Shown one piece after another: positions 10,904 through 55,025 of a stretch of DNA of 64,000 bases. Location: NCBI GenBank assembly GCA_000165345.1, contig CM000430.1, forward strand, positions 352,001 through 416,000, read 5' to 3'. Every line of letters begins with the position of its first letter. Within the stretch, counting starts at the first letter, position 1. The position numbers were made by a program, and so were the translations under genes. A model generated the notes under the pieces. It was not told the origin of the DNA. It worked only from the letters and a program-made list of their open reading frames with translations, and made no database searches.

Positions 10904-10988
10904 GCGTAGATGCCCGAGTCGGTCTAAGGGGCCAGACTTAAGATCTGGTGTACACATGTACTCCAGGGTTCGAATCCCTGTCTACGCA
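10904..10988 (+). tRNA. tRNA-Leu (anticodon UAA), class II with long variable arm
   Basis: Acceptor GCGTAGA/TCTACGC. Anticodon stem-loop CCAGA-CTTAAGA-TCTGG. Variable arm GTACACATGTACTCC. T-arm CAGGG-TTCGAAT-CCCTG. Discriminator A. Followed by a TTTTTT Pol III terminator. Confidence 0.85.
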
Positions 10989-20900: not shown

Positions 20901-21946
<1,046 letters not shown>

Positions 21947-22241
21947 TTATTACTTCAATATGTTAAATTTAAAGATAAATTACAAAAAAGAAAAAAAATG
22001 TTGAGAAGTGGTTATTTTAAAATTGACTTTTCTCCCCATCAAAATTTTTAGACAATACCGGTAATTTGACTTAAATTAATTGTTTAATACGAAAAAACAA
22101 TTTAGGTTAACAATTAAATGATATACGTAGATATAGTATTTAACTCATTCTTTTCTATTATAGTGAATAAACTAAACTTTAATATTTTGGGCTATTATTT
22201 TACTGATTGTTTGCCCTGAAATGGCAAAATTTGATACTAAG

Positions 22242-23229
22242 CTAGTCTGATTTTGAGAGTATTCTATTCCTTAAAGTTTCTATAACTTTTTCATTTGCTG
22301 CAACAAAATATGGATTAATTAGAACTTCTTTATTGTAGGTAAGTGGTTCCCCTAGTTTGAACTGGGTTTCTGATCCAGAAAAAAATGTTTCAAGCTTGTA
22401 AATATCACCGCAAGTTTGCCGTATAATAATATGGCTCGCACAAGTGTCCCATTCCATACAGTCATGAAACCTTGGATAGATATCAGCACGACTTTCAATA
22501 AGTTCAATAAATTTAATCGATGATCCGAATGGAATTTTAATATTGTTTTGGAAGAATTTCTCTGAGAATAAGTCTAAAATGGGGCATTTATAATTATGAG
22601 ATTTTAGTATTCTAATCACTCCATTATTGGGAAATGGTTTATTTGATTTGGGGATAAATTCAAGTGAGGTTTTGCCACAAATTACGTTAGAAGAATTTAA
22701 TGTAGCAATTTTATAAGCTCCTCCTAAATTATTAAACGAAAAAAATGATATTCCAGTATTTGGAATCGATACAACTCCAAGGGTTGGTTTGCCATTTTCA
22801 CAAAGTCCAATATTCACAGTGAATTCACCGTTTCGCCTCAAAAATTCTTTTGTACCATCAAGAGGATCAATGAGCCAACAAATCCTGAAAAAAATTAAAT
22901 TTTTTAGTTTAGTTTACAATAACTTACTTATACTTTTGCCTATTTTCCCAAGTATCAGTTTCCGATTCTTCTGAAATTATTGGTATTTGCGGCCACTTTG
23001 AAGAGAGTTTAGCACAAATGATTTCATTCGCATTTAAATCTGCTGTTGTGACTGGAGAGTTATCTTTATCCTTGTAATTAATTCTTAGTTCCGCATCAAT
23101 ATTTTTGTAAATTTCCATAATAACTTTGCTAGCAAGAAACCCAATTTCGACAACCTCCCTAGCAGAAATGACCACTTTACTGTCTAAATTAGTTTCGTAA
23201 CACAATTTATTAAATTCATCTAAGCTCAT
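22242..23229 (-). CDS. HAL2: 3'(2'),5'-bisphosphate nucleotidase (HAL2/SAL1 family), 2 exons
   Basis: Exons complement(22242..22884, 22928..23229). Intron 22885..22927 (43 nt, GTAAGT...TTTCAG). Splicing gives ...QKYK|ICWLIDPLDGTKEF (W-DP-DGT motif), VTTADLNANEII and WDTCASH motifs. Confidence 0.75.
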
Positions 23230-23294
23230 TTTTAACTATTTAATAAAAGAAAGCGCGATTAAAGAATAATTATAATGAAAGTAAAATGAGTTAA

Positions 23295-24004
23295 TTATTC
23301 CAAAAATAACAAATAAATCATAATAACTATTCCAACAAAAAGTGAAAAGTTAGATATTAACTTATTTCTAAGTTCTTCATCTGAAGAAGCGTAATGATTA
23401 TAATGTATTTGAGTGAAAACTTACTGTTGTCTGATTGTCTGCTATTTGCAAATTCGGGAATGAAGTAACGATGGGTGTAACCCAAGCTCAAAAGAGCACC
23501 TAAAGGATTTGCGAACACCGTTATTAGTGGAGTATTATTAATTCCAAACCCAAAATCTGCATTGTGAAAATATCCATTATGCCCCCCAATATTTTGATTA
23601 CGTTGTCTAGCCTCCGGCCTTTCAGCCTTCGGTCTTGGCTTTGTTTTTTTTCTAGGATCAACATTTTCATTACCTCTACCGTATAATGGAATTACATTCT
23701 CTGAATTAACTCCAGCCTTGCAAACTGGGCAGTCTTCATAACCTCTATCTAGCCAGGAACAAATACAGCTCCAACAATACTGGAATGAGTTAGTTTACAA
23801 TGATGTATATAGTTAAGAACTTACTAGGTGACCACATCTTGTCACGATAGGCTCATATGCATTTTCAAAACAAATATTGCATTCAAAACTAGTATAGTTT
23901 TTTGACTTCTCTTCAGATCTATGATGGTGATCAGACTGTTCTCCGTTCAATCCGCTGCCTTTTGCGTCAATCTCACTATTTGAAATGTTATTTACCTCTC
24001 CCAT
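23295..24004 (-). CDS. RNF5/RMA1-like membrane-anchored RING E3, 3 exons
   Basis: Exons complement(23295..23380, 23425..23779, 23825..24004). Introns 23780..23824 (45 nt) and 23381..23424 (44 nt). RING CNICFENAYEPIVTRCGHL|YCWSCICSWL...CPVCK. The exon-3 tail FSLFVGIVIMIYLLFL is a TM helix. Confidence 0.6.
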
Positions 24005-24261
24005 AAAACCTACAAATTTGTAATAATTAATTGATTGAATTTTCTTACATATTTTCTAATATTAATCTATTAATAATTAAATAGAATGTTTGTGGCGGGT
24101 TGGTACTTGCTCTACTTTGTCACTAAATAAAATAATTCAAAATATAATCTGGTGCATACAGCTTAATAGAGTAAAACTCTCTAACCGATTAATTTTATGC
24201 ATAGTTTTCGTCACGTATATGAACATAGAATAATAATGTAGATGATTATTTAGAAGTTGAG

Positions 24262-24277
24262 TTCCCGCCCACACGTG
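24262..24277. promoter_or_regulatory. TTCCCGCC (E2F-like) + CACGTG (E-box) in the RNF5/NDR divergent promoter
   Basis: GC-rich motif pair in AT-rich DNA. An adjacent low-complexity (TAAATA)n tract lies at 24310-24356. Confidence 0.3.
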
Positions 24278-24706
24278 TCAATTGTTTTGATTTGTTATAT
24301 ATGAAATATTTAAATAAATAAATATAAATATAAATATAAGTATAAATATATATATTCGTTATTGAAGTTGAAATTAGCATTCTATATCCGCATTCCTTTG
24401 TTCAAGGCATGTATTTGTTACTGATGCTTGTATTTTAAATATTCTTTCCTCCATCTTTTCCTTTTTTGTTGAGCAGTATTAATTAAAATCTAATTCTTTA
24501 AAAGTATTAAACTTGTGCACTCGCGTTAAAATTAATTACATTGATAAATCCAATAATACTTTGTATTTATTTTATTGAAATTTTTAAAGATTCTTACATG
24601 TATTGTTTCCAAGTGGACGTACACTTATGTATGCATATTACATAAGCGATATAATATTTGAAGTAGTTTATTATATTGAGAGAAATTTCAAAGTTATACA
24701 ATAGTA

Positions 24707-26337
24707 ATGAACAATAATTCAAAAAGGTAGGTAAATAATTTGCTTAAATATAAAAGATACTTTAAAATAAACATAACAAATATTAATGTTTTTTTTTGGA
24801 TTTTTAACAGGGCTCTAAAGTTAAACCTTCTTGATAACATTGAAAATCTTAAACAAAGCGTGTTGCTGAATAAGGCATCAATAGAGACAAATTATTTGGA
24901 AAGATGCGAGAAAGCAACAAAACATTGCATTACTAAAAATAATCACAAAGATGAGAATGAGGATAACTTAAGGCTGTTGTAAGTTAGGAAGGAGCTTTTA
25001 AAATAAACTTTCATTCAATAATAGGAGAAAAAGAGTTTCAATTAAGGATTTTAAAATTCTAAGCCCAATTGGCGCGGGAGCATTTGGTATAATTAGACTT
25101 GCGGAATGCAGGAACACAGGCAGCATTTATGCGCTAAAGCAAATGAGAAAAAGTATTATCAGAACAAAAAATCAGCTTGAAAGGATATACAATGAGAGAG
25201 CACTCCTGGCTCAAAATGCATCCGACTTTGTTGTAAAGTTATTTTACACATTTCAAGATGATAAACACTTATACCAAGTAATGGAGTATTTGCCTGGAGG
25301 GGACTTGATGTCATATTTAATAAAATATGATAAATTTAGTGAAGAAGACACTAGATTCTACATGGCGCAATTGGTTCATGCCGTTGATTTAGTTCATCAG
25401 TTAGGGTTTGTACACAGAGATGTAAAACCAGATAACATTGTTCTTGATTCTAAGGGGCATCTCAAATTATTAGATTTTGGGCTTTGCAAGTTTTCTCCAC
25501 TAATTGAAGGAGACGAAAATAGAGAATACCAAACAGAAAATCATTTAAGATGTGTCAATTTAAACGCTAAATCACATAAAGATAGTAATAAAGCTTCTGA
25601 AATTTCCTTTAATGAGAACAACGAAAACAAAAGAATTAACAAAGAACTTTATCGAGGATCAAATTTACTAGAAGAAAAGAATTGCCAAAATGAAGATTTA
25701 AATACTTCTCTGAAGCATTTGGACAGAAAGACAATTCATTCTACTGTAGGAACCCCACAGTATATGGCACCAGAAATATTTCTCAGACAAGGGTATACAC
25801 ATCTTGTAGATTGGTGGAGCGTGGGAATACTGATGTATGAATGTCTTTATGGAGGAGTACCATTTAATGATGATACGCATAACCCAATTAAAGTCGCAAT
25901 AAAAGTAATGCAGTGGGAAAAGTTATTATTACTCCCACATCCATGTAGAAAAATTTCGCCCGAAGCACTAGATCTACTAAAAAATTTATTGTGCCATCCT
26001 TCAAAAAGGTTTGATGGTGAACAGATTAAAAAGCATCCTTTTTTCAATGGTAAGTTTATAAATTTCGGTTAGTTTATTGAATTTATAACTTATGATAGAA
26101 ATTGATTGGGATAAATTAAGACAATGCCCTGCTCCATTCAACAAACAGATTAATGAGAATATATATAAAAGCAATGTTACGGCAGCAGAACTAATTGATG
26201 AGTCTCCAAACAACACAAGATATGGTGTTCAGGGTTCTTCACTAGTTGATATAAATTTCTTGGATTATACTTATAGGAATAAAGATCGTAATAATGATCC
26301 TATATCAATAGGAGAGGCCATTAAAATGTGCGGATGA
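24707..26337 (+). CDS. NDR/LATS-family AGC kinase (Cbk1/Orb6-like), 4 exons
   Basis: Exons 24707..24726, 24811..24978, 25025..26049, 26099..26337. EDNLRLL|RRKRVSIKDFKILSPIGAGAFG, HRDVKPDN, DFGLCK with an activation-segment insert, HPFFNG|EIDWDKLRQCPAPF AGC tail. First exon is tentative. Confidence 0.65.
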
Positions 26338-34706: not shown

Positions 34707-36056
34707 ATGGATTTCAAAAAATACGAATTAATTAAAGAAATAGGGAGCGGAACTTTTGGTAAGTAGTTGTTTTGTGAAATTGTATCAAAGTTATTAGTTT
34801 AGGCCGCGTTTGGATGGCAAAAGATTTTGATAGCAATGAGTTTGTGGCAATAAAAAGAAGGCCGAAATGGCAAAATATCGTAAGGTATGTTTTGGAGTCG
34901 CTTTCTTAATTGATCAATCATTATTTTTATCAGCCGCGAAGTTGAGGCGATGGAGGCAGTTAAAGGAGAAAGGGGGATTGTACAAATTAAAGGATGTTTT
35001 TATAGTTTAACGCCAGGAGGAATAATAATGCAAAACATTGTAATGCCATTAATGACAAAAAGTTTAGGCGTTTTTATTAGAGAGAATAGGGCATTAAGAA
35101 AGCAAAACTCATCACATAGAATATCTCCAGAATTGGTGAAAAATCTTTCATTTCAAATTGTTAATGGCTTAGCTGCATTACATTCATCTGGATATACTCA
35201 CCGTGATTTCAAGCCAGACAATATTTTATTGATGGATACAGATGACAGTGAAAGAAAGTTTCCTACAATTAATATTTGCGATTTAGGTAAGTTGTAATTT
35301 GATTGGTTGCTATTAATTTTCCTTAGGGTCTTCAAAAAAACTGTTGAATAACAGTATTCACATGCCTTATGTGGTAAGCAGATTTTACAGAGTAAGTTTG
35401 CATCTGAAAAATAGTAAATGTAAATTCTTTCAAGGCACCAGAATTATTACTAGGAAGCTGCGATTACAATGAGAAAATTGATATTTGGGGTAGGTGCGGA
35501 TTATTTTTGTGATTAAATATCATTTTCTTTAGCTTTGGGTTGCATTCTTGCTGAACTATTGGCACTTGATCCTATTTTTGTTGGTAAGTATATGAAAATA
35601 GAATTGCATTAAAAATCAATTTCTTAGGCCGATGCCCAGACAAATATAGAGACAATAAAGTTAATTATAACAAACAAGGAGTTGATGAACCATTTCAAAT
35701 CCTGAAGATTATTGAAGTATTGGGGAGTCCCAACTCAAATGATATAGAATTAATTAAAAAAACGGTTCCTAAATCAATAATTAAGGTACTAGATGAATGC
35801 CTTCTTAAATCTGAAGTTTCCTCAATCTCATGGTTGGAAATATTTGAAGGATTTTTCACAGACGGGTATGTTTTAATCAATTATTTCTTTAATTTACATT
35901 TTTTTAGAGAAAGATTACTAGTAGAAATTATTTCGAATTGTATTCAATGGAATCCTACTAAAAGGCCATCAGTAAGTTGAATGATAAATATCTACAAATG
36001 AATTAAAGTTGCTTAAGGCCATTGAAATATTGAAGAGTAAATATTTTGAAAATTAA
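34707..36056 (+). CDS. GSK3-like CMGC protein kinase, 9 exons
   Basis: Exons 34707..34758, 34803..34884, 34934..35286, 35327..35391, 35435..35489, 35533..35583, 35628..35865, 35908..35971, 36009..36056 (1008 nt, 335 aa). GSGTFG|RVWMA...VAIK, HRDFKPDNILL, ICDLG|SSKK...YVVSRFYR|APELLLG...IDIW|ALGCILAELL, KIIEVLGSP. Confidence 0.6.
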
Positions 36057-37070: not shown

Positions 37071-38078
37071 TTAGCCACTTAATATCGGCTTAGCTTCCTT
37101 TTGATGCAAAACTTCTACTGACTTGTTATTTTCCAATCTTACTTTAAAATCCTTTATAGTTTCCTTGATTCCTGTTTTAATATCTACCGTTGGTTTCCAA
37201 TTTAAGATTCTAATTGCTCTGGAAATATCAGGTTGTCTTTTTTTAGGATCATCCATTGGAAACTTTCTGTGCGATATTTTTAAATTAGGGTCAACAAGTT
37301 CACGAATTATTTCGCCTAGTTCTAATATCGAGATTTCATTAGGATTTCCTAAATTAATTGGCATGTTGTCTAAAATCTTCTCCCTATCTAATTTCATTAG
37401 TTTATAGAGCCCATCAACCATATCAGTAATATAACAGAAACTCCTTGTCTGCGTTCCGTCCCCATAAATAGGCAATTCTTGATTGAGCAGTGATGAGAGA
37501 ATAAAGTTTGAGACTACCCTACCATCATTAAACAGCATTTTAGGACCATATGTATTAAAGATTCGAGCTATTCTTACATCAACACCATGATTTCTATAAT
37601 ATTCCATACAGAGAGTTTCCGCGATTCGTTTCCCCTCATCATAACAGCTTCTGGTTCCAACCGTGTTTACGTTTCCGTAATAAGATTCATTTTGGGGATG
37701 AACTAATGGGTCACCATAAATTTCTGATGTAGAAGCAAATACAACTTTTGAGTTTGTTCTTTTGGCTAACCCTAAAATATTCATAGTTCCAATAAAGCAT
37801 GTCTTTAACGTGTAGATCGGATCCTTTTGATAGTGAATGGGAGATGCCGGGCATGCAAGGTGATAGATTTCTTTGACTTCTAGCTTGATACTATCAATAA
37901 TATCGTGTCGAATAATTTCTAGCCTAGGGTTTTCTCTACACTGGCCAATATTAATCACATCCCCACTGAAGAAGTTATCCAGAGCAAGGACATAATAGCC
38001 CTTACTCAACAGATACTCAACTAGATGAGAGCCAATAAACCCAGAGGCTCCAGTTACAAGAACAGTAATATCTGACAT
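37071..38078 (-). CDS. UXS: UDP-glucuronate decarboxylase (UDP-xylose synthase)-like NAD-dependent dehydratase
   Basis: VLVTGASGFIGSHLVEYLL (Rossmann GxxGxxG), YxxxK, ...STSEIYGDP...RIARIFNTYGPKM...DGRVVSNFI is near-collinear with UXS1. Confidence 0.75.
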   Translation of the reverse strand: MSDITVLVTGASGFIGSHLVEYLLSKGYYVLALDNFFSGDVINIGQCRENPRLEIIRHDIIDSIKLEVKEIYHLACPASPIHYQKDPIYTLKTCFIGTMNILGLAKRTNSKVVFASTSEIYGDPLVHPQNESYYGNVNTVGTRSCYDEGKRIAETLCMEYYRNHGVDVRIARIFNTYGPKMLFNDGRVVSNFILSSLLNQELPIYGDGTQTRSFCYITDMVDGLYKLMKLDREKILDNMPINLGNPNEISILELGEIIRELVDPNLKISHRKFPMDDPKKRQPDISRAIRILNWKPTVDIKTGIKETIKDFKVRLENNKSVEVLHQKEAKPILSG

Positions 38079-38145
38079 TTTTCTTTGTATTTAAATTTGG
38101 AATTTGAAAATAACTCTCCCAGAGCAAAAAAAATGGGAAATCAAA

Positions 38146-38240
38146 TAGCGCGCGCCCTCACCCACATGATACCATAGCGCCATAGGCGGCAAAATGTGTG
38201 TAGAGTGTGTGGGTATCTTTCGCGTTTCCCCACATGTCGA
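38146..38240. promoter_or_regulatory. GC-rich island in the UXS/MORN bidirectional promoter (TAGCGCGCGCC, CCCACATG x2, TAGCGCCATAGGCGG, TTTCGCG)
   Basis: ~95-bp GC-rich block inside >80% AT intergenic DNA, read directly from sequence. Confidence 0.4.
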
Positions 38241-38430
38241 AAAATTGTAATATTCAACTTTGTAGAACAATTTCAAGTAATATAAACTTTGAGTGGTGAG
38301 ACTTTTTCATCTGTAACCATAAATCATTTCTACTTCCCAGATTTTAAAGTTCTTATCACCATTCACAAGCTATTGAATATAAATAAGGTAACATTCTGAG
38401 TGAATTATTGATTGACTTGCATAATTTAAT

Positions 38431-40035
38431 ATGGGAGGTTGTAAATCAAAGGCCGATAAGCATATTGAAAATAGGGAGATTCCACAAGCCCCAGAATTGA
38501 GAGTTGAAAAACGGCCTTTAGTTGAACTTCAGGATAAGATTACATACGAGGGTGAATGGTTAGGGGACAATAAACATGGATATGGAATTCAGAAGTGGCC
38601 AGATGGTGCCGTTTTTGAGGGAAACTTTGTCAATGGAACAGCAAACGGATACGGAGTATTCATTCATACTGATGGCGATAAATATGAGGGCGAATGGCAG
38701 AATGATAGAGCTCATGGCCATGGCACATATACGCACTCTGATGGAAGTAAATATGTAGGCGAATGGAAAAATGACAAAAAACATGGTAGGGCTATTGAGA
38801 GCTGGGTTGATGGTAGTAATTTTGAAGGAAGTTATGCATATGGCCTTAAACAAGGTTTTGGGAAATTTTCATGGCATGATGGTTCAAAGTATATTGGTAA
38901 CTTCGACGCAAACCAAATTAATGGCTTTGGAATCTATCATTGGAATGATGGGAGAGTATATACGGGCTATTGGCTAAAAAATCATATGTTTGGTTATGGC
39001 AAATTTGATTGGACCGATCATAGATGCTATGAAGGACAATACATAAATGATAAAAAAGATGGTGATGGCAAGTTTACATGGCCAGACGGTCGAGCATATA
39101 TTGGTCAATGGAAGAATGGAAAACAACATGGAATTGGTATATTTTATAATATTAAAAAGGAAGGTAAGGTTGGAGAATGGAGAGATGGAAGTAGGTTGAG
39201 GTGGATAAAATCTTCTCTAGAGAATGGCGAGTTGGTCGGGGAGGGTTTGAGTTTAAGAGAAGAATATTCTAAGCAAAGGGAAGAGCTTTTGAAAGCAAAT
39301 GATTTGTATGAAAACTATAGAAAACTTCCAAAGAATGATTTGGAGCTCCAGCAAATGAGGATATTACAAAAATTCGATGAGTACCTACTCACTTTGAGTG
39401 ACTCAGAAAAGAGTTTGGAATCAAATAAACAAGCCGCATCAGATACTTTGGTAGATTCTAATAATATTGTTACACAATTGAAGAATAACGATTCTGCCCT
39501 TGAAAACAAACATCAGGAAATGGAGAACGCTGATGGCGGAAATGAGCAGTTGAATACGGAAAGTTTGCAGATAGAAGAAACAAAAAATGAACAAGAAAAT
39601 TGTGGTGGTTCAGAGAATGTTGTTGAATATACTGCTGACTTAAGCCTTGTTGAGGAAAGCAGTGACAAAGAGGAAAAGCCTATTAGCGCCCCTCTCATAC
39701 AAGAAGACGCTCAAATCAATACAGAATTAGTGGATCAAGTTCAGGTAGACAGTAACAAAGATCGTGGGATGACTGGTGGAAATTCTGCTTTAGACTTATT
39801 AGACTGTTCTGAGAATAAAGGAGAGATCTTGGAAAATTCTGGTGCAGATAGTTCTGACTCAAAATTGGATAACTTGGAGGTTAAACCTTGTAATAATGAA
39901 GATATACAAATATCGGAACAAGAGATCAAAGGAGATTTAGTAGAAAATATAGGTTCAGAATTGAAAGCTAATTCACTGACTGAAAAGGAATTGGAAGATA
40001 TAGCTGAAAATAAAGGGTTAGAAGATTCAAAATAG
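38431..40035 (+). CDS. MORN-repeat protein with N-terminal dual-acylation motif and acidic C-terminal tail
   Basis: MGGCKSK (Gly2 myristoylation, Cys4 palmitoylation candidate). At least 9 YEGEW.....HG.G MORN repeats. Glu/Asp-rich tail. Confidence 0.75.
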   Translation: MGGCKSKADKHIENREIPQAPELRVEKRPLVELQDKITYEGEWLGDNKHGYGIQKWPDGAVFEGNFVNGTANGYGVFIHTDGDKYEGEWQNDRAHGHGTYTHSDGSKYVGEWKNDKKHGRAIESWVDGSNFEGSYAYGLKQGFGKFSWHDGSKYIGNFDANQINGFGIYHWNDGRVYTGYWLKNHMFGYGKFDWTDHRCYEGQYINDKKDGDGKFTWPDGRAYIGQWKNGKQHGIGIFYNIKKEGKVGEWRDGSRLRWIKSSLENGELVGEGLSLREEYSKQREELLKANDLYENYRKLPKNDLELQQMRILQKFDEYLLTLSDSEKSLESNKQAASDTLVDSNNIVTQLKNNDSALENKHQEMENADGGNEQLNTESLQIEETKNEQENCGGSENVVEYTADLSLVEESSDKEEKPISAPLIQEDAQINTELVDQVQVDSNKDRGMTGGNSALDLLDCSENKGEILENSGADSSDSKLDNLEVKPCNNEDIQISEQEIKGDLVENIGSELKANSLTEKELEDIAENKGLEDSK

Positions 40036-40208
40036 GATAAGAACAGGTAAATAGCGAAACAATAGATTTGAATTATATGTATATGAATTTAGTTTCGTTG
40101 TAGGAAGTTTTTTTGTAAATTTGAGATTAAAAGCATTAATACTAGTATTTTTTTTAACAATTTATTTGCGCGGATTTCTTTTTAGTTCAATTTAATAAAA
40201 TTTTATTC

Positions 40209-54253: not shown

Positions 54254-55025
54254 TCTTACTTCCTTTTAAGAATGGAATTATTATAAGGAATAAGTATTTC
54301 TAACCTTTTAAACTGTTTTTTATGCAAGCTGTGGAGTAAATGTTCCCTACTAACTTTTTATTAATAAAATGTTACCCCACACAGGAAATATTAAAAATAA
54401 AGTATGTTCAGCGCACTAAAATCAATGTTATATCGACACTTTCCTGGGTAGACTTAACTTCGTTCGCCACAACAATCTCTTCCATTAATCCGACAAGAAC
54501 ATCATTTTATCCTATTACCAATATTTACTCATGCAAAGAGACGAGACAGTTGATGGCGCCATATAAGGTTCGGAAATGTTTTCTTTTTCTTTTTTGCATT
54601 TGTGATAAACAATTTGATGGATTTGTAAGGTAATGGATATGTTAAATGCTAATGTCGTATAATGACCGCTAATCATCAAGCTGCTCACTAGCTTTTGAAT
54701 TGATACTTTTAAAAATGATTTAAGATCGTAATATAAGTTAATTTTAGATTAACCAAATCATCTACAAAAATATGTTTTCAACTATTTTACTTTATTATTT
54801 TTAATTTTAATTTATACGGTTCAAACAATGAAATAAATTTATTTAATGAAGTTGTCTGATAAGTCTGTGTCTCCACCATTATGTCGAAATTACATGATTA
54901 ATTGTAAAGTAATAAGCATCCTAAAATAAATAACCAGAATAAAATCTGCTAATTTTTGTTGAAATTCACGAGATGCAAACTCATTTCTAGATTAGTATAA
55001 ACACTTATTATATTTCATTTTAAAT

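Follow-up and report, generated by a model that had tools for sequence, protein, structure and literature searches.

The GC-rich block between the divergent UXS-like and MORN-repeat genes of Cryptosporidium parvum is probably a pair of back-to-back promoters including an unusually constrained 27-bp core

The locus analyzed here is the segment 38079-38430 of a 64-kb stretch of DNA (the whole of this stretch is called the window hereafter). This 352-bp gap extends exactly from the start codon of a UXS-like gene (38078, minus strand) to that of a MORN-repeat protein gene (38431, plus strand). The UXS-like protein, a UDP-xylose-synthase-like short-chain dehydratase/decarboxylase by product type, is an exact match to C. 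parvum EAZ51386 / CPATCC_000746, and the MORN-repeat protein is an exact match to C. parvum EAK88790. Three proteins of the window were compared in all, and each is identical to a C. parvum protein. A previous sequence-only reading had pointed out a 95-bp GC-rich block (38146-38240) in this gap, and all the motifs that it quoted were recovered in place. The genes and features of the locus are the following:

37071-38078, minus strand: UXS-like gene (UDP-glucuronate decarboxylase / dTDP-glucose 4,6-dehydratase-like), 335 aa, Pfam GDP_Man_Dehyd and Epimerase
38146-38156: GC box TAGCGCGCGCC, the first of the motifs quoted previously
38161-38168 and 38229-38236: two copies of CCCACATG
38175-38189: TAGCGCCATAGGCGG
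38195-38206: TGTGTG(TAGAG), a CACACA-type copy found only in the C. parvum clade and C. felis
38195-38213: GT-rich run
38207-38233, plus strand: 27-bp core GTGTGGGTATCTTTCGCGTTTCCCCAC, inverted GTGGG...CCCAC halves around a conserved T-rich centre, the right end being a G-box
38218-38224: TTTCGCG
38234-38272, plus strand: spacer conserved in length and not in sequence
38273-38280, plus strand: conserved octamer TCAAGTAA, candidate initiator-like transcription-start element of MORN
38273-38430, plus strand: putative ATG-free MORN 5′ leader, proposed on the basis of ATG depletion
38431-40035, plus strand: MORN-repeat protein gene, 534 aa, N-terminus MGGCKSK, Pfam MORN

The claim that GC motifs are denser in the block than expected from composition holds, since the block has a GC content of 0.55 and carries eight CpG. 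This is the maximum number of CpG among the 13,868 non-coding 95-bp intervals of the window, whose mean GC is 0.29 (sd 0.066) and of which 0.5% have a GC of at least 0.50. The only other non-coding stretch of the window that is equally GC-rich is a tRNA-Leu gene (10904-10988). This tRNA-Leu(TAA) gene is 85 nt long, is followed by a T-run and has TTCCCCAC 77 nt upstream. Both occurrences of CCCACATG in the 64 kb are within the block. The block is therefore real and well beyond chance. However, its flanks are 74-75% AT and not more than 80% AT as had been claimed.

The locus was compared in C. parvum and ten further Cryptosporidium taxa (C. hominis, chipmunk genotype I, C. ubiquitum, two Logan assemblies, C. 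felis, C. bovis, C. xiaoi, C. ryanae and C. andersoni), all retrieved through their MORN orthologues. The UXS/MORN pair is divergent (head-to-head) in 11 of 11 taxa. The two genes are separated by 336-376 bp in each of the ten intestinal taxa and by 1846 bp in C. andersoni. Although many substitutions distinguish C. parvum, C. hominis, chipmunk genotype I and C. ubiquitum, these four taxa share a gap length of exactly 352 bp. Between clades, the intergenic alignment is reduced to a few islands, the remainder being mostly unalignable. At the N-terminus of the MORN protein, the C. parvum clade has MGGCKSK, the C. bovis clade MGSCASK and C. andersoni MGNCRSK, with a conserved Gly-x-Cys pattern that we take to be typical of myristoylation and palmitoylation.

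Phylogenetic footprinting, which the sequence-only reading had proposed as a check, revealed a core that is conserved in the 11 taxa along with the divergent gene pair. The core has 22 invariant columns out of 27, and its ends, GTGTGGG and CCCCAC, are invariant throughout. In C. andersoni, it reads GTGTGGGTATCTTTccctcgGCTTTaCCCCAC, with identical ends and five additional nucleotides in the middle. The orthologous DNA compared (6.6 kb, mostly coding) contains a single 10-mer common to all taxa, TGTGGGTATC, which is located within the core, and, outside of the core, a single 9-mer common to all taxa, an A-run. The synonymous background is saturated: at the four-fold sites of MORN, C. parvum shares only 26-32% identity with C. 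felis, C. bovis, C. ryanae or C. andersoni, and none of 62 such sites is invariant. Furthermore, the MORN coding sequence does not contain any run of at least 6 nt that is invariant across taxa. Therefore, the near-invariance of the core while neutral sites are saturated indicates strong selection on it at single-nucleotide resolution.

A search for the core pattern elsewhere in the window found no match, even when three mismatches were allowed, and shuffled sequences gave none either. A metagenome scan for this pattern gave no match, and a full-text literature search for the core 10-mer retrieved only unrelated primer sequences. The centre of the core, GTATCTTTYGCGTTT (13-15 nt), is as conserved as its ends and matches no known motif, and the length of the near-invariant sequence (27 bp) far exceeds that of any single known Cryptosporidium motif. 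The left end alone, GTGTGGG, is over-represented in the window (4 occurrences compared to 0.99 expected), three of its four copies being in non-coding DNA. A coding micro-exon or an upstream ORF at the core was also considered and rejected, since the 5-nt insertion of C. andersoni disrupts all frames and since neither the upstream ATG nor the ORF that it opens is conserved. Elsewhere in the window, GTGTGGGGTAAC (54371-54382, minus strand) resembles the extended left half of the core; it is located 118-129 nt upstream of the start codon (54253) of a minus-strand gene encoding a 990-aa protein, in a divergent intergenic region that also includes a GGCGCC box (54555-54560).

Downstream of the core, the exact octamer TCAAGTAA is found at a syntenic position in each of the 11 taxa. 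In ten of them, it is separated from the core by 37-39 nt (38-40 nt to CAAGTAA), the distance to CAAGTAA being 24 nt in C. felis. CAAGTAA/TCAAGTAA precedes the MORN start codon by 148-159 nt in 10 of the 11 taxa, the stretch from TCAAGTAA to this codon spanning 148-232 nt over the whole set. This stretch does not contain any plus-strand ATG in the 11 taxa, compared to a total of 32.9 expected from composition. The depletion does not extend to CAT in the same stretch (44 compared to 32.0 expected in the 11 taxa), and ATG is at its expected frequency upstream of the core (36 compared to 34.0 in the 11 taxa), TCAAGTAA marking the 5′ limit of the ATG-free zone. Strand-specific avoidance of ATG is a signature of scanned mRNA leaders. 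Since ATG is absent from TCAAGTAA on, and on the plus strand only, this stretch is likely the MORN 5′ leader, which would place the core just upstream of the transcription start. Furthermore, 8 of the 11 taxa have an ATG no more than 8 nt past the 3′ end of the core (C. parvum CCCCACATG), where it opens non-conserved frames of 7-21 codons. Considering both these core-adjacent ATGs and the ATG-free zone that begins at TCAAGTAA, transcription of MORN is predicted to begin in the interval from the 3′ edge of the core to TCAAGTAA.

The second copy of CCCACATG provides, in the C. parvum clade, the ATG of an upstream ORF of 21 codons (38234-38299). Neither the length nor the sequence of this ORF is conserved in the C. 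bovis clade, and C. felis and C. andersoni both lack its ATG. The Logan contigs that carry the gene are all genomic; one of them (L013) begins inside the intergenic region and is unspliced.

The main motifs reported upstream of C. parvum genes are E2F motifs (TGGCGCCA, [A/T][C/G]GCGC[G/C][A/T], GGCGGG), the G-box, CACACA and TGCAT (PMC3734150, PMC4117751, PMC12246861). On protein-binding arrays, the ApiAP2 domains of cgd8_810, cgd2_2990 and cgd1_3520 recognise the G-box, G[T/C]GGGG (PMC3734150, PMC4117751), and CACACA is a target of four AP2 domains of C. parvum; AP2 domains are also able to dimerise on DNA (PMC4117751).

Two E2F-like GC elements were identified in the block. The first one, TAGCGCGCGCC, is located 68-78 nt upstream of the UXS start codon and contains the E2F-like cores CGCGCG and CGCGCC (38149-38156). 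A GC box (GCGCGCC or GGCGG) is found 70-103 nt from the UXS start codon in the 10 intestinal taxa, GCGCGC drifting to GGCGG in the C. bovis clade, and a GCGC box is located 82 nt upstream of this codon in C. andersoni. The second element, TAGCGCCATAGGCGG, is 16-20 nt upstream of the core. Ten taxa retain the GCGG of its TAGGCGG, with A or G in front, and in C. andersoni TTAGGCGCCCAA is found 26 nt upstream of the core, so that a GC box precedes the core by 16-26 nt in 11 of 11 taxa. Compared to the published 8-nt E2F motif of C. parvum, [A/T][C/G]GCGC[G/C][A/T] (PMC12246861), the first element matches the 6-nt centre SGCGCS at 38149 and 38151 and lacks the A/T flanks, GGCGG (38185) is one mismatch off, and AGGCGCCC of C. 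andersoni matches at 7 of 8 positions. SGCGCS is over-represented in the window (7 occurrences compared to 2.65 expected), with several copies within about 100 nt upstream of start codons. TTTCGCG had been considered as an E2F half-site. However, it reads TTTTGCG in most taxa and is not kept as an E2F-like string; therefore, this label does not explain the conservation of the position.

The right end of the core, CCCCAC (38228-38233), reads GTGGGG on the minus strand, an exact G[T/C]GGGG. It is invariant in the 11 taxa and is the only G-box in the intergenic region of each of them. CACACA has two copies in C. parvum (38195 and 38206) and none in C. bovis, C. xiaoi or C. andersoni. Since it is missing in the C. 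bovis clade and in C. andersoni, this motif does not account for the conservation. The CCACAT of the first copy of CCCACATG (38161-38168, plus strand) is kept in 10 of the 11 taxa and was not found in C. andersoni.

The neighbouring promoter, that of the next gene, provides a point of comparison. Its sole footprint conserved across the 10 intestinal taxa is TTTGCGCGGA (40165-40174), an E2F-like box located 35-44 nt upstream of the start codon (40209) of a gene encoding a 1140-aa protein without Pfam domain; C. andersoni carries TTTGCACTAA at this position. As this neighbouring promoter also has a conserved E2F-like box, GC boxes appear to be the normal conserved unit in this region.

The block had been proposed to be a cis-regulatory module shared by the two divergent genes. 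Both the footprinting in 11 taxa and the ATG-free leader argue for its cis-regulatory nature; sharing by the two genes is borne out only partly, given the arrangement found in C. andersoni. The two genes are less than 1 kb apart in 10 taxa, while in C. andersoni the GC-rich island is split between both genes. The core and one GC box are found there 270-300 nt upstream of MORN, whereas UXS is 1.5 kb away; the core, the GGCGCC box preceding it and TCAAGTAA are all located 230-330 nt upstream of MORN. Since the core remains associated with MORN and UXS has a GCGC box of its own, the block appears to consist of two separable promoters back to back. The extra DNA that separates UXS from the MORN core (about 1.5 kb, AT-rich; 655-2170 of the C. 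andersoni-like contig L009) is absent from the ten intestinal taxa, the whole 1846-bp gap of C. andersoni having a GC of 0.26. Neither an ORF of at least 60 aa nor an Rfam match was found in this 655-2170 segment.

Taken as a whole, these data suggest that the block is probably promoter DNA, made of two core promoters placed back to back and including an unusually constrained MORN core. According to this model, the left part (38146-38156) would be the E2F-like GC box of UXS, at the usual distance of about 70-100 nt upstream of the start codon, and the right part would serve MORN through the second E2F-like box (38175-38189) and the 27-bp core (38207-38233). The core, with its inverted G-box-like half-sites GTGTGGG and CCCCAC around a T-rich centre, would be a DNA-level target of sequence-specific factors, the leading candidates being G-box ApiAP2 proteins acting as a pair on the core and E2F/DP on the neighbouring boxes. 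Transcription of MORN would then start about 10-40 nt downstream of the core, at or just before TCAAGTAA, and would produce an ATG-free leader of about 150-190 nt in the ten intestinal taxa and a longer one in C. andersoni. The genomes of the intestinal taxa, which are compact, would thus accommodate both promoters within 95 bp. What is observed here is the conservation, the geometry, the depletion in ATG, the way the halves come apart in C. andersoni and the matches to known motifs; the binding factors, the exact transcription start and any effect on expression are deduced from them. Some observations do not fit this model easily. They include the length of the core (27 bp), its unmatched centre and the 5-nt insertion of C. 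andersoni. Such an insertion corresponds to half a helical turn between sites that would be rigidly coupled, and a flexible pair or a hairpin loop therefore fits better than a fixed dimer. Furthermore, the agreement of the E2F-like boxes with the published 8-nt motif is limited to its 6-nt centre, and AP2 motifs are reported to be absent from sporozoite open chromatin (bioRxiv 10.1101/2025.01.17.633476).

Four other explanations were weighed against the promoter model. Short GC-rich strings do arise in AT-rich DNA, but this general fact is all that speaks for a fluctuation of composition devoid of function, which is refuted by the top CpG count of the block among non-coding intervals and by its genus-wide conservation while neutral sites are saturated; the probability left to it is negligible. 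The sequence-only reading had also envisaged a small structured RNA gene. An independent non-coding RNA gene (an unannotated snoRNA or snRNA-like gene) lying between both genes would be consistent with the tRNA nature of the only other non-coding island of equal GC, with the few snoRNAs annotated in C. parvum (PMC12246861) and with a minus-strand T8 after the block (complement of A8, 38126-38133) that could be a terminator for polymerase III. However, the covariance-model search proposed to check it (Rfam 15) gave a single match at gathering threshold in the window, the tRNA at 10904, which was also the only gene found by ARAGORN, with none in the block. A permissive Rfam scan of the block (E up to 10) and of five orthologous loci retrieved only a weak, low-complexity match to a viral RNA, the unrelated Epstein-Barr virus RNA, whose score in the block is 24 bits compared to a threshold of 58. 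Folding stability is ordinary: compared to dinucleotide shuffles, the z-scores are -0.84 and -1.17 for the two strands in C. parvum and range from +0.6 to -2.1 (mostly 0 to -1.3) for both strands of the 11 taxa, with no consistent strand. RNAalifold predicted 5-10 pairs on either strand, none with a compensatory change; they come down to the invariant 5-bp GTGGG/CCCAC repeat, to which the minus strand adds a mostly unchanged 5-pair helix. By inspection of the block, the only candidate C box was AUGAUAC at 38166, which is not conserved in the C. bovis clade and is not followed by any CUGA (D box) within 150 nt, and no H/ACA arrangement was seen. Comparisons made by eye with known small RNAs (U1, U2, U4, U5 and U6 snRNA, RNase P/MRP, the telomerase template with its TTTAGG repeat, C/D and H/ACA snoRNA) gave only short chance resemblances, none of which survived the Rfam scan. 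Furthermore, the pattern of conservation between clades, short islands separated by unalignable spacers of which only the length is kept, is unlike that of a contiguous transcript under structural constraint. Overall, a small RNA gene is not supported by these data, and we consider it very improbable.

Two explanations remain. One of them is that the core acts as RNA, in a transcript starting upstream of 38207. It would form a hairpin in the MORN 5′ leader, with a 5-bp GUGGG/CCCAC stem and a conserved U-rich loop of 15-20 nt, bound by a protein and involved, for example, in a stage-specific control of translation or stability. The invariance of GTGGG...CCCAC in 11 of 11 taxa agrees with such a hairpin, as does the location in the would-be loop of the sole change in length (the 5 nt of C. 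andersoni); invariance over 27 nt is also typical of RNA elements recognised by their sequence, and C. felis and C. andersoni do not have any ATG from the 5′ edge of the core to the start codon. However, in 8 of the 11 taxa, the ATG located at most 8 nt after the core would open non-conserved upstream ORFs of 7-21 codons in such a transcript. No covarying pair was found, the extension of the stem is inconsistent, the stability is no greater than that of shuffled sequences, and the fixed spacing of 38-40 nt to TCAAGTAA suits the geometry of a promoter better. An RNA-level core is thus rather unlikely. The other explanation is that TCAA|GTAA is the donor of an intron of 53-64 nt in the MORN leader (38277-38340 in C. 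parvum, ending with ttcccag), the core being located in or just before a short non-coding first exon. The conservation of GTAA and the presence, in most taxa, of a pyrimidine-rich tract and an AG 53-64 nt downstream (tattatacag in C. andersoni, ttgccctcag in C. ryanae) would fit this structure. However, the site reads GTAAWW (GTAATA, GTAATT or GTAAAT) and does not follow the local donor consensus, as positions +5 and +6 are G and T in all six of the neighbouring kinase introns (four with GTAAGT, one with GTATGT and one with GTAGGT). Moreover, its conservation is mostly on the exon side (TCAA), unlike that of real donors, and Logan SRR31860986 has CCGG in place of the acceptor CCAG. Lastly, the depletion in ATG runs through the putative intron, where it would be needless if this sequence were spliced out. 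A leader intron is therefore unlikely.

The promoter model relates the block to systems already described in C. parvum. As in E2F/DP sites, its CGCGCG/CGCGCC (38149-38156) and GGCGG (38185-38189) match the centre of the motif, and its boxes are within about 100 nt of the gene start at a conserved position, the neighbouring promoter being comparable; unlike these sites, they lack the full 8-nt motif with its A/T flanks, and their sequence drifts from GCGCGCC to GGCGG. Compared to the ApiAP2 G-box, the right end of the core is exact (minus strand) and its left end, GTGTGGG, is an inverted near-copy; however, the known motif is 6 nt long, whereas the putative site found here is constrained over 27 nt and has an unmatched centre of 13-15 nt. 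Bidirectional promoters, dominated by E2F, make up more than half of the open-chromatin peaks of C. parvum sporozoites (bioRxiv 10.1101/2025.01.17.633476). The locus resembles them by its head-to-head genes 352 bp apart with a single GC-rich island between them and differs from them by the 1.5 kb that separates the halves in C. andersoni. Since the halves can be this far apart, the elements are adjacent but not necessarily shared. Proximal sequence elements of the snRNA type are long conserved elements placed at a fixed distance upstream of the start. The position of the core, about 40-70 nt upstream of the predicted start, resembles theirs in layout only; there is no sequence similarity, and the transcript downstream of the core would be the leader of a protein-coding mRNA and not a conserved small RNA.

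The general picture is unchanged, as conserved GC-rich boxes are expected in the AT-rich promoters of this genus. The kind of element is already known, this new instance being unusually constrained. Tentatively, the core could be an ultraconserved non-coding element, present once and throughout the genus, that is more constrained than ordinary transcription factor sites, although we regard this as doubtful. It could then be recognised by a factor not yet described whose footprint is long (for example a multi-finger or paired-domain protein, or a boundary-type factor acting at the head-to-head pair), or it could be an RNA-level control element of the MORN leader; in both cases, it would represent a new class of regulatory element for Cryptosporidium. 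To our knowledge, very few cis-elements of Cryptosporidium have been defined beyond over-represented short motifs, and almost none has been functionally tested. The locus offers a compact promoter with clear boundaries and a predicted start, whose core is more constrained than any neighbouring coding DNA. Owing to these boundaries and to the natural experiment provided by C. andersoni, it is a convenient test case for deciding whether E2F/DP, G-box ApiAP2 or other proteins drive such promoters. It could also be used as a small defined promoter for transgene expression.

Other observations were made in the window. A fused GC-box / G-box-like string, CCCGCCCACACGTG (24264-24277), is located within a 3.4-kb stretch (21744-25142) that is devoid of any ATG-opened ORF of at least 120 aa and contains a 199-aa ORF with a TTG start (22242-22841). 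The protein kinase gene located upstream of UXS (34740-35640) has at least six very short introns (about 40-50 nt), and its annotation differs between two C. hominis assemblies, with a product of 235 aa in one and of 604 aa in the other.
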